Made by a program: the position numbers and the translations under genes. Below are positions 9,257 through 31,744 of a stretch of DNA of 64,000 nt, in pieces. Origin of the DNA: a virus; IMG/VR virus record IMGVR_UViG_3300037961_006825, positions 10,205-74,204 of that record. One strand, given 5' to 3'. Within the stretch, counting starts at the first letter, position 1; every line of letters begins with the position of its first letter. The notes under the pieces are model-generated. The model did not search any database, was not told the origin of the DNA, and saw only the letters and a list, made by a program, of their open reading frames with translations.

Positions 9257-10163
9257 ACCAAAAGATCCTTCTATTAGTATTGTAATGACTCATTTTAATA
9301 GAGCTCATCTATTAGAAAGAACATTACATACTTTCACGTATAATAAAACAAGAGATTTTGAAATAGTTATTGTAGATGATGCAAGTGAGACTGATGAGTG
9401 GGAAAAGTTAATAAATTTAATTAGTGAATATAAACAACATTTTAAGTTTAGAGTTTTTAGAATTAGAGAAAATAGTAAGTGGTATTCCAATCCATGTATA
9501 CCTTTTAATATTGCATTAAAACAGGCTAAAGGTAAAATTATTATAATACAGAATCCAGAATGTTTACATGTTGGCAATATTATTGATTATGTGCATAAAC
9601 GACTTGATGCATTTGATTCCGACGAAGCTATTCCACATAGAAAATTTATGTCTTTTGCTTGTTATAATATTGATAAGAATCAAACCGAGTCATTAGCTCC
9701 TAACCCTACACCAGAAGAGGTTTTAAAAACTATTAACCCGGTAAATAATAATCCTATTACACATTGTGAAGAACCGGGTTGGTATGATCATTCTAAATAT
9801 AGACCTTTAGCATATCATTGGTGCAATGCAATAGCAAATGAAGATTTTAAAAAATTAAAATATTTCGATGAGAGATATGCTTTTGGTACAGCTTATGATG
9901 ATGATGAATTAGCATGGAGAGTTAAAAAACTATTATACTCATATAATGAAGGTATTAATAATCCTTTAGTAGTGCATCAATGGCACGGTTTGGGTAATTA
10001 TTATAAAAATCCTAATCAAGCAGAAAATCAAATGAAACAAGATTACAATCACAAGTTTTATGAAACAATTACTAAAAGTGAACAAAGAGGAAAATATAAT
10101 CCTGATAATATAAGAAATGATTTATCTGAAAAAGTAGAATATGATATAGTATCAGGTGTATAA
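9243..10163 (+). CDS. Glycosyltransferase family 2
   Basis: SIVMTHFNR, VIVDDAS, FDERYAFGTAYDDDE, HQWH. Confidence 0.85.
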   Translation: MQQDKPKDPSISIVMTHFNRAHLLERTLHTFTYNKTRDFEIVIVDDASETDEWEKLINLISEYKQHFKFRVFRIRENSKWYSNPCIPFNIALKQAKGKIIIIQNPECLHVGNIIDYVHKRLDAFDSDEAIPHRKFMSFACYNIDKNQTESLAPNPTPEEVLKTINPVNNNPITHCEEPGWYDHSKYRPLAYHWCNAIANEDFKKLKYFDERYAFGTAYDDDELAWRVKKLLYSYNEGINNPLVVHQWHGLGNYYKNPNQAENQMKQDYNHKFYETITKSEQRGKYNPDNIRNDLSEKVEYDIVSGV

Positions 10164-29571: not shown

Positions 29572-30324
29572 ATGACTATGAATAAAAAATACATCATCAT
29601 TGGAGCATTGGTTGCTATCGTTGCATTTTTTACAATGTGCGGTAAAGCTGAAGCTCAAGAAGTAAAACAAGAGAAGACATGGAGTGTCAATACTGAAGTA
29701 GGTTATTACGAATCAAGAATCTCCGGAGGATTGGTTGGAGCAGAAGATGCCCCGTACGTAAAAGCTTCTACGAAAATTGGCGATTTTTATGGCTTATCGC
29801 TCGTAGGTGGGATCGAATATGTTGATGATCCTGATGCTTACGAATTGCACGGTTCAATTGGAACTGTTCTAGATACACCTATCGGTGATATCGATACAAG
29901 ATTAGTTGCACATAATAAACAAGGTAGCGATGCTACATTTGAATTAGTTGGAGCTTATATTGTAAACTTATTTAGCTTTGTAGAAACAGAGTTAAGTTTA
30001 AGCGTAGAAAATGGATCAGAAGCTGTTGATACTACTTTAGATCCTATCTATACCCCTGCTGTAGTATTATCAAAGACCTTTAATACTGGTACTTTTGATC
30101 TTATTGTAGGTGGTGAATATGGACAATCATTCGGTTATGATGAAGACTATGAATACATTCATGGATTTGCAAGACTTGAAACGATTGTTAATGATGCTGC
30201 TAAGTTATTTGTTCAAGGTAATTGGATTAATAGTGATGTAGTATTCGCAGATGGAATTACTTATGCTGATGCACAACTTGATTGGGATCAATCAGTTAAT
30301 GTTGGGTTAGCATTTACCTTCTAA
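29572..30324 (+). CDS. Outer-membrane beta-barrel protein
   Basis: Signal peptide (…KAEA|Q), alternating amphipathic strands, C-terminal VGLAFTF (BAM-type terminal Phe). Confidence 0.75.
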   Translation: MTMNKKYIIIGALVAIVAFFTMCGKAEAQEVKQEKTWSVNTEVGYYESRISGGLVGAEDAPYVKASTKIGDFYGLSLVGGIEYVDDPDAYELHGSIGTVLDTPIGDIDTRLVAHNKQGSDATFELVGAYIVNLFSFVETELSLSVENGSEAVDTTLDPIYTPAVVLSKTFNTGTFDLIVGGEYGQSFGYDEDYEYIHGFARLETIVNDAAKLFVQGNWINSDVVFADGITYADAQLDWDQSVNVGLAFTF

Positions 30325-30342
30325 TTTTATTTAGACACAATG

Positions 30343-30378
30343 AGCCCTCTACTGAGAAATCGGCAGAGGGCTTTTTTT
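30343..30378 (+). terminator. Intrinsic terminator between convergent genes
   Basis: AGCCCTCT...AGAGGGCT followed by T7. Confidence 0.85.
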
Positions 30379-30381
30379 GTA

Positions 30382-30555
30382 TTACTTGCTCCAAGCAGAG
30401 CCACGGTACATACCGTGCTTTACTTCTGTAGCAGGTTTTACTTTATTCGGATCGTAAGTGTTTCCTCTGTAAGAAGCGATGCCGGGTTTCTTTGCCACCG
30501 CTTGTTCAGAATTTTCCACTTTCGCTCCTCTATACTGCATGTATCGAGTTGCCAT
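30382..30555 (-). CDS. DUF4278-like YRG-repeat small protein (57 aa), unannotated
   Basis: MATRYMQYRGAKVENSEQAVAKKPGIASYRGNTYDPNKVKPATEVKHGMYRGSAWSK; three YRG motifs; AAGGA SD upstream. Confidence 0.85.
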   Translation of the reverse strand: MATRYMQYRGAKVENSEQAVAKKPGIASYRGNTYDPNKVKPATEVKHGMYRGSAWSK

Positions 30556-30577
30556 AGTTTATTTTCCTTTTACGGTG

Positions 30578-30655
30578 CGTTCCTTCCCCTACCCCATATT
30601 TCTTTCATAGAACTATGTACAGAAAATAGGGTACTTCCGCCCTTTCGGGTGAACG
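30578..30655 (-). ncRNA. Glutamine riboswitch (glnA-motif type)
   Basis: CGUUC-A-CCC(GAAA)GGG-C-GGAAGUA-CCCUA...UAGGG-GAAG-GAACG gives P1, P2, E-loop and P3; sits 22 nt upstream of the YRG gene. Confidence 0.85.
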
Positions 30656-30674
30656 AGTTATATATATATTTATT

Positions 30675-30690
30675 ATTTTAATATAGTTCC
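30675..30690 (-). promoter_or_regulatory. GGAAC-N5-TAAAAT promoter upstream of the riboswitch
   Basis: Minus strand GGAACtatatTAAAAT about 20 nt before the riboswitch 5' end. Confidence 0.55.
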
Positions 30691-30715: not shown

Positions 30716-30967
30716 ATGGAAATTATACTATACACAATCGTTTGGCTTTCACTTGGAGGTTTATTTGCTACTATTTTACTAGCAAATGATCCTTATGTTA
30801 AAGCTAAAAAAATAGCTGATATCGCTTTAGAGCGTATCGAAATATTAAAGCATAAGTGGCTTGAATCTGAAAAAGCCGGTTATGATATTGGCATAGAAAA
30901 TGCTCAAAAATCATGGAAAAAAAATCATGCTAAAGACTGGCGAAAAAGCCGGAAGAAAGCTGCTTAA
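30716..30967 (+). CDS. Membrane-anchored DUF4032-like protein
   Basis: TM helix, then EILKHKWLESEKAGYDIG...W...HA-x-x-WR. Confidence 0.65.
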   Translation: MEIILYTIVWLSLGGLFATILLANDPYVKAKKIADIALERIEILKHKWLESEKAGYDIGIENAQKSWKKNHAKDWRKSRKKAA

Positions 30968-31669: not shown

Positions 31670-31744
31670 TATATAAATAGTTACTGGTAGGGGAGTACGC
31701 AATTGTAAACTGGGGTTGGTTGGTGGGAACATTTTACAAATATC

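Follow-up and report, generated by a model that had tools for sequence, protein, structure and literature searches.

The pairing of a glutamine riboswitch with a gene for a DUF4278 protein has been known in cyanobacteria since 2018 (Klaehn et al. 2018, PMC6212724; PMC6316151). In Synechocystis PCC 6803, a type-1 aptamer in the 5′ untranslated region (UTR) of gifB, which has an NtcA-regulated promoter, controls translation of a DUF4278-bearing product, IF17 (PMC6212724), while in Prochlorococcus MED4 the cellular gene PMM1846/yfr6 encodes a short stand-alone DUF4278 protein behind an NtcA box and a type-2 pseudoknotted aptamer (Downstream-peptide, RF01704) that is ON in nitrogen excess (PMC6212724, PMC6316151). 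The glnA RNAs are listed for cyanophages (PMC9964418, PMC9602691), RF01739 has been reported in SAR86 metagenome-assembled genomes (MAGs; PMC12379486), and glutamine riboswitches of the Methylophilales phage Melnitz and the Pelagibacter phage Mosig, of ten pelagimyophage metagenome-assembled viral genomes (MAVGs) and of five related virome contigs have been read as control elements of tmRNA (Buchholz et al. 2022, PMC9004378). The locus described here belongs to the IMG/VR contig IMGVR_UViG_3300037961_006825, which is 74 kb long, derives from marine metagenomes and is approximately 34% complete; the stretch analysed, hereafter the window, comprises 64,000 nucleotides (nt) of it. With a probability of about 0.7, the locus is a late unit of a pelagimyophage-like T4-type phage, in which a glutamine riboswitch would control the translation of a DUF4278 peptide. 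Neither the switch nor the peptide family nor the combination of the two is new, and the first-pass annotation, which presented the locus as a novelty, overestimated it in this respect: glutamine riboswitches are already published in such non-cyanobacterial marine myophages (PMC9004378), and sister cassettes are common.

In the proposed mechanism, transcription would begin at a T4-style late box, a few bases ahead of a type-1 glutamine riboswitch, and yield an RNA of approximately 310 nt; the aptamer of this riboswitch would bind L-glutamine and govern translation initiation of a 57-codon DUF4278 gene, with more peptide being made when glutamine, and hence nitrogen, is plentiful (an ON switch). 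A hairpin held in common with a converging gene would end the transcript, and the peptide, predicted to consist of three YRG beta-hairpins on flexible linkers, would bind a host nitrogen-metabolism protein late in infection. The elements lie on the minus strand in the order AATAAATA box, RF01739 aptamer, CACCG tail, Shine-Dalgarno (SD) sequence, 57-codon open reading frame (ORF) and hairpin, at the following window coordinates:

30667..30674, minus strand: box AATAAATA resembling a late promoter, 11 nt before P1; the ~310-nt transcript is predicted to start here
30574..30657, minus strand: type-1 glutamine riboswitch aptamer, from Rfam score and covariation
30651-30655 / 30578-30582, minus strand: P1, CGUUC / GAACG, from the sequence
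30640-30649, minus strand: P2, CCC-GAAA-GGG, from the sequence
30632-30639, minus strand: J2/3, CGGAAGUA, from the sequence
30587-30631, minus strand: extended P3, 45 nt, from the sequence
30583-30586, minus strand: 3′ half of the E-loop, GAAG, from the sequence
30577, minus strand: C directly after P1, from the sequence
30556..30577, minus strand: linker and putative expression platform, with tail CACCG, SD AAGGAA (30564-30569) and an 8-nt spacer to the ATG
30382..30555, minus strand: gene for the 57-amino-acid (aa) DUF4278 microprotein, stop included, from Pfam PF14105 and coding pattern
30343..30372, both strands: 10-bp GC-rich hairpin, predicted intrinsic terminator common to the peptide gene and a converging gene for an outer-membrane-protein-like (OMP-like) product

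The window has the same aptamer core as the gifB leader, located likewise in the 5′ UTR of a DUF4278-bearing gene under what is predicted to be translational control (PMC6212724). It differs from gifB in that its product has 57 aa and consists of DUF4278 alone, with no IF7-like moiety for binding glutamine synthetase (GS), in that a T4-type late box takes the place of the NtcA-regulated promoter, in that P3 is extended to 45 nt, in that no helix sequestering the ribosome-binding site (RBS) is visible, and in that the carrier is a phage of a probable heterotroph. PMM1846/yfr6 resembles the window gene as a short stand-alone DUF4278 gene under glutamine-riboswitch control, but its aptamer is of type 2, it has an NtcA box and it is cellular.

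The aptamer matches RF01739 (type-1 glutamine riboswitch, glnA RNA) over 84 nt at 30574-30657 (-) with 42.3 bits against a gathering score of 35 (E = 7.5e-6 in the window, 2.1e-9 in the 74-kb contig). All model positions (1-53 of 53) are covered, P3 contains a 37-nt insertion relative to the model, and this is the sole Rfam match across the 64-kb window. The fold of the 361-nt unit is much more stable than those of shuffled sequences (z = -5.4). In the solved aptamer, GGAAGUA, GAAG and the C after P1 sandwich the glutamine and make the G23-C60 pair (PMC11477058, PMC6212724). The first-pass annotation had drawn a complete glnA-type aptamer here from the letters alone, with P1, P2, E-loop and extended P3; every one of these parts is present, and the covariance-model search that it proposed returned the expected family.

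When viral and metagenome collections were scanned by protein and by pattern, more than 12 related contigs with the cassette were recovered, which reduce to 10 distinct leaders. Their RF01739 scores are 42-47 bits, except that the variant of contig L139 falls under the gathering score though it keeps the architecture. In the alignment of the 10 leaders all 15 pairs of P1-P3 are 100% paired, and both sides have changed at five of them. Compensatory changes in L139 convert a C:G pair of P1 to G:C and the CCC/GGG of P2 to UCGC/GCGA, and the CC/GG at the base of P3 is AU/AU in L004, L139 and L140. When computed on a 19-pair structure that includes a 4-bp CCGU:AUGG candidate helix, the observed pairing values were matched by none of 500 column shuffles, and controls in which the structure was slid along the alignment were paired at only 36-46%. 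The isolated P3 folds in two registers, and its apical hairpin differs between two sub-clades, as expected of a variable arm; for this reason the scoring of P3 was restricted to its basal six pairs. Across the 10 sequences there is no variation in GGAAGUA, GAAG or the C after P1. Judged from its sequence, the RNA is a genuine glnA-type glutamine aptamer, and since its ligand-contacting core is fully conserved, it probably binds L-glutamine.

The conservation extends to distant relatives: RF01739 (43-58 bits) also stands in front of the genes for peptides with three YRG motifs on other viral contigs, one of them a 46-kb phage that is 84% complete and lacks psbA, indicating that the link between RNA and peptide is itself conserved. 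It might still be supposed that the aptamer is an inherited relic and that the late promoter drives constitutive production of the peptide, as the SD is predicted to be accessible in all states. Such a relic is highly improbable, given that the core is invariant and the stems are compensated across relatives whose peptides are just 54-60% identical, and that distant members of the family in other phages have the aptamer as well.

The 57-aa ORF contains YRG at residues 8-10, 29-31 and 50-52, and residues 28-56 match Pfam DUF4278 (PF14105) with 30.1 bits against a cut-off of 25.3 (28 bits in a six-frame search). The peptides of relatives are 53-95% identical to that of the window. Among seven close homologues, variable columns number 3, 5 and 13 at the three codon positions of the minus-strand ORF, and the insertions and deletions of distant relatives are in frame for it. 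By homology and coding pattern, this ORF is a real DUF4278 gene. The first-pass annotation had recognized both the SD and the ORF with three YRG motifs on the minus strand, and rightly dismissed as spurious the plus-strand 113-aa ORF (30340-30681 (+)) shown at this place. The latter was rejected as a gene because it is antisense to the aptamer and the DUF4278 ORF and the codon pattern favours the minus strand; its frame is interrupted by a stop codon in L003, and in L139 the stretch shows no antisense ORF of at least 50 aa. The minus-strand ORF was not as hidden as had been thought, however: near-identical copies have already been called as genes on public contigs, with PF14105 attached.

The peptide family is small, an exhaustive profile search of 1.84 billion proteins having returned just 31 representative clusters at E <= 1e-3. 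Its signature consists of three invariant YRG motifs approximately 21 residues apart and a terminal G-x-YRG-x-x-W. AlphaFold2, run on the family alignment, predicted three beta-hairpins with RG at each turn (predicted local distance difference test score 72, predicted template-modelling score 0.25); in this model the peptide, which is basic, resembles a string of beads more than a compact fold. Searches of PHROGs and NCBIfam with the peptide or the family profiles found nothing, tblastn of the peptide found no match among phage records, and no meaningful match among 50,697 phage records was obtained by blastn, either with the surrounding 2.5 kb or with the leader of 126 nt. None of the prokaryote species genomes scanned for the peptide patterns of the subfamily or for the exact 24-nt aptamer core carries either. 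In one public gene call of 106 aa (P0012), the N-terminal two thirds of a DUF4032-like neighbour (the homologue of window 30716-30967) continue, across the word SEKA that both have, into the final two YRG repeats of the peptide; this call represents either an assembly chimera or a relative in which a rearrangement has removed the riboswitch.

Comparable units are known from cyanomyophages. In a pattern scan of IMG/VR, a long-P3 aptamer turned up on at least 118 viral contigs, of which nearly all have an ORF of 26-55 aa approximately 30 nt downstream, mostly of the form MSKVVYRG...YRGV; psbA is present in all five of the large sister-cassette contigs tested. Like the unit of the window, these glnA-RNA cassettes are compact and mobile, combining an aptamer with a short and usually YRG-bearing ORF. 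In contrast to the window peptide, however, theirs have two YRG motifs and score 19-23 bits, below the Pfam cut-off; a second aptamer-like core is embedded in the P3 of these cassettes, and the tail CUCUUUAA forms a helix with the SD UUAAGGAG, which is predicted to be unpaired at only ~0-0.05. In the cassettes of L010-L127 (for example, L010 4365-4459) the core within P3 has the form CGUUCA-hairpin-...GAACGC, and Rfam scores part of the aptamer or misses it. In some of these cyanophage ORFs the YRG module is fused to a basic helical one (..IRQQIEKEERLKQAQLAMAMK), itself also found on its own as an ORF of 26-35 aa.

The contig is T4-like, with genes for gp23, gp20, gp5 and gp15, and its GC content is approximately 30%. 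Its gp23 and gp20 are 29-34% identical to those of cyanomyoviruses (33% for gp23, over 94% of its length), and gp23 is 40% identical to that of Melnitz over residues 117-483. Just upstream of the window lies a curli operon with CsgF (57 bits) and CsgG (159 bits; G000 8818-10135), followed by a FecR-like gene (window 667-1668) and a gene for a 680-aa protein resembling adenylate/guanylate cyclases (1665-3707). CsgG is 44% and the cyclase-like protein 38-40% identical to those of HTVC008M (a SAR11 phage) and Melnitz (an OM43 phage), in which the gene order is the same. Among the 50,697 phage records, CsgG and cyclase matches were confined to these two phages, barring one 1.5-kb Salmonella-phage record for CsgG and weak partial Acinetobacter matches for the cyclase; the complete cyanophage control (G002) has no such module of CsgF/CsgG and cyclase. 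A curli operon in the variable region is a published oddity of marine pelagimyophages (PMC7029224). No psbA/psbD or hli gene was found in the contig or in four related contigs (G000, G001, G007, G008, G009) by searches in which a complete cyanophage control was positive, and no gene for ribosomal protein S21 was found in the 74-kb fragment. The curli and cyclase kinship together with the lack of psbA and hli suggests that the phage is a divergent member or neighbour of the pelagimyophage/Melnitz group, probably not a cyanophage, with a streamlined marine heterotroph as its probable host. This agrees with the remark in the first-pass annotation that cyanophage hallmarks are missing.

The top-ranked matches of gp23 and gp20 are nevertheless cyanomyoviruses, all five large sister-cassette contigs carry psbA, and the contig is only 34% complete, so that a divergent cyanophage with an ordinary cyanophage nitrogen cassette, its photosynthesis genes being in the unsequenced two thirds, has to be considered. 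This is quite improbable: the identities of 29-34% do not exceed the 40% to Melnitz, HTVC008M and Melnitz have the CsgF/CsgG and cyclase module in common with this phage while the cyanophage control lacks it, psbA and hli are lacking from all five contigs searched, the GTA-N8-TAC box of NtcA-regulated genes is not seen in the 60 nt upstream, and the GC content is approximately 30%.

Two further features of the contig and its relatives may be recorded. The first 10 kb of the contig (L145 18-7499) encode FolE2, a QueD-like PTPS protein, PhoH and spermidine synthase; combined with queF and tgt-like genes of the window, these genes would fit a 7-deazaguanine pathway. A group I intron (86 bits) precedes the cassette by approximately 640 nt in L139 (3041-3260; also in L130 and L141); it follows an ORF of 273 aa, in a region of tail/baseplate genes where a PAAR-like gene is close by.

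The motif that the first-pass annotation had taken for a promoter, AATAAATA, is a one-mismatch variant of TATAAATA, a box that precedes many genes of the phage: 15 of its 23 copies in the window are followed, at a distance of at most 25 nt (mostly 5-10 nt), by an ATG with a frame of at least 60 codons, where 1.5 would be expected at random. Elsewhere in the window than at the cassette, TATAAATA looks clearly functional, and it may be regarded as the late-promoter box of the phage. Example sites in the window are at 1647, 4661, 28200, 30700, 31238, 44043, 48138 and 53859. From the spacing of 5-10 nt between these 15 boxes and their start codons, late mRNAs of this phage are predicted to be nearly leaderless, the exceptions being the riboswitch unit and the box at 31672 (a leader of approximately 60 nt). 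At the cassette, all 10 relatives have retained (A/T)ATAAATA or TAAATA at a distance of 10-13 nt before P1, with a perfect TATAAATA at the same place in L004 and L140. Given this distance, the riboswitch would constitute essentially the whole leader of the unit. No NtcA-type GTA-N8-TAC box was found in the 60 nt upstream.

At the other end of the unit, the hairpin at 30343-30372, also anticipated by the first-pass annotation, is a canonical terminator with U7 for the plus-strand OMP-like gene; in the sense direction of the peptide gene it is preceded by an A-run and followed by a moderately U-rich stretch. Compensatory changes preserve its stem in L134, L137, L139, L004 and L141, the last of which also has a T-run when read in sense. 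The OMP-like gene (29572-30324 (+)) converges on the DUF4278 gene with the terminator hairpin in common, and does so likewise in L139 (4229-4855 (-)), where the peptide is only 54% identical. The OMP-like protein (208-250 aa) has a signal peptide, a C-terminal aromatic residue and a beta-barrel-like character, and no Pfam or PHROG match. An island with a porin and a glutamine riboswitch has been described in a Prochlorococcus MAG (PMC12379486).

How the aptamer would act on translation is less evident. The ATG is at 30553-30555 (-), 21 nt from the aptamer, and the SD begins 8 nt past P1; as a gap of 21 nt is too short for a terminator, control must act at translation initiation. The tail CACCG and the SD AAGGAA are invariant in the 10 relatives. 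Pairing of the SD was sought with the 5′ strand of P3 (UAUUUUCU), the 5′ strand of P1 and the tail, and none was conserved. Two candidate platforms were rejected, namely the CCGU:AUGG helix, which has 4 bp with zero covariation and is disrupted in two of the 10 relatives, and a hairpin over codons 2-10, which is invariant but weak and confounded by conserved codons. Both tested DUF4278-linked glutamine riboswitches, one of each type, are ON switches (PMC6212724), and in the gifB model the RBS is masked by the C after P1 together with adjacent nucleotides, until this C is recruited when glutamine binds (PMC6212724). Judged by its homology to the gifB leader of Synechocystis and the PMM1846 leader of Prochlorococcus, a translational ON switch is somewhat better than an even bet for the window.

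Several observations weigh against the overall reading. The gp23 and gp20 proteins are just 30-40% identical to those of any cultured phage, and in a contig of ~34% completeness missing cyanophage genes are not proof. The promoter box at the cassette is a one-mismatch variant, and AATAAATA itself is not enriched in the window. No anti-SD helix was seen in the subfamily of the window; the SD AAGGAA is predicted to be 0.7-0.8 unpaired in eight of the 10 relatives whether or not P1 is forced, unlike in the cyanophage and L142 cassettes, which have clear anti-SD helices of 7-8 bp (in L142, CAUCUC pairs with GAGAUG) that match the gifB model (PMC6212724). With no such helix visible, the choice between ON and OFF for the window is made on homology. 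The idea of the first-pass annotation that the phage reads the nitrogen status of its host is accordingly plausible as far as the aptamer and the gene are concerned, but the expression platform through which it would do so is not visible, and even the sign of regulation is assigned by analogy.

The same observations leave some room, unlikely though it is, for the main rival explanation, the opposite sign (OFF) or a non-canonical platform. The SD lies only 8-10 nt from P1, no anti-SD helix was found and the SD is predicted to be open in either state, so the compact glutamine-bound aptamer might occlude the 30S site; metagenomic glnA RNAs that precede glnA genes are expected to be negative regulators (PMC6212724). 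In a variant of this explanation the leader would act via the coding-region hairpin, which begins with the G next to the AUG and takes in codons 2-10; the invariance of the tail CACCG and of this hairpin (CUC/GAG plus GC/GC) could be cited in its favour. The hairpin is weak (-5.5 kcal/mol for the consensus), however, and its conservation is confounded by the conserved codons (MAT..QYRG), while the tested DUF4278-linked glutamine riboswitches of types 1 and 2 both argue for the ON switch (PMC6212724).

The target of the peptide may be considered in the light of IF17, a DUF4278 protein under the control of a riboswitch of this class (PMC6212724). The DUF4278 part of IF17 forms its N-terminal moiety, which stabilises the protein and is dispensable for GS inactivation (PMC6316151); R110 and K102, which bind GS, are in the IF7-homologous C-terminal moiety (PMC6316151, PMC6212724). 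The 57 aa of the window peptide are wholly occupied by the three YRG repeats, and the IF7-like C-terminal part is absent (IF7 having been compared by its description). An IF17-like action on GS, as implied by the first-pass annotation, is therefore not supported. DUF4278 membership, the precedent of IF17 with its riboswitch of the same class (PMC6212724) and the basic character of the peptide would speak for an inhibitor of the host GS, but this is doubtful in view of the dispensability of DUF4278 in IF17 and the missing IF7-like part with its critical R and K residues (PMC6316151), the lineage specificity of GS-inhibitor pairs even among cyanobacteria, to which such inhibitors are described as being limited (PMC6212724, PMC6316151), and a host that is probably not a cyanobacterium. 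By the evidence here the target is probably not of the GS type, and the peptide most likely binds some host nitrogen-metabolism protein late in infection.

One candidate interaction is suggested by the motif itself, as the LQYRGAEV of relatives resembles the VYRGAEY of the PII T-loop (GlnK sequence, PMC7919409), and AlphaFold2 sets each RG at a beta-hairpin turn. The YRG hairpins might thus mimic the T-loop tip (YRGAEY) and compete for PII partners such as AmtB. This mimicry is improbable: searches of all Protein Data Bank sequences with the family profiles found nothing even at E 10, SAR11, a likely host clade, is without GlnB, GlnK and GlnD (PMC3870248), and an invariant motif of three residues can arise by chance. 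Since the likely host clade lacks the IF-type GS control of cyanobacteria and SAR11 lacks PII, the target of the peptide there cannot be the textbook one. A broader proposal, itself speculative and unlikely to hold in full, is that stand-alone peptides with three YRG hairpins, rather than being cyanobacterial GS inhibitors, are a general class of horizontally mobile nitrogen-status effectors of phages of heterotrophs (of SAR11, OM43 and SAR86 types), late and glutamine-gated, with a target conserved beyond cyanobacteria (for example, via mimicry of the PII T-loop) and with an SD-proximal platform that, unlike that of gifB, has no anti-SD helix.

The Melnitz, Mosig and MAVG riboswitches (PMC9004378) are of the same RNA family as that of the window and belong to T4-like marine myophages with CsgF/CsgG curli operons. 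The published account reads the riboswitch as a 3′ domain of ssrA and names no downstream peptide (PMC9004378), whereas the riboswitch of the window would regulate a clear DUF4278 gene, and a tmRNA was not found in the window. The Melnitz aptamer was confirmed at 52.8 bits. In the Melnitz record (MZ577097 46398-46564; L009 1400-1565) the riboswitch overlaps the 3′ end of the annotated tmRNA and is followed by an SD, GGGGAG, and an unannotated 32-aa ORF with no Pfam/DUF4278 match, to which the annotated coding sequence MelnitzEXVC044M_89 is antisense. The published reading of the Melnitz riboswitch as a control element of ssrA may need revision.

If the late-unit reading is correct, the module of glutamine riboswitch and DUF4278 gene is not confined to cyanobacteria and cyanophages, and would move among marine phages that differ in host, as a cassette running from promoter to terminator. 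The reading of riboswitches in pelagimyophage-like phages as tmRNA control has probably overlooked small downstream ORFs. The missing anti-SD helix would make the window and its relatives a test case for how type-1 glutamine riboswitches transmit the ligand signal, and the subfamily would offer a handle on the function of DUF4278.

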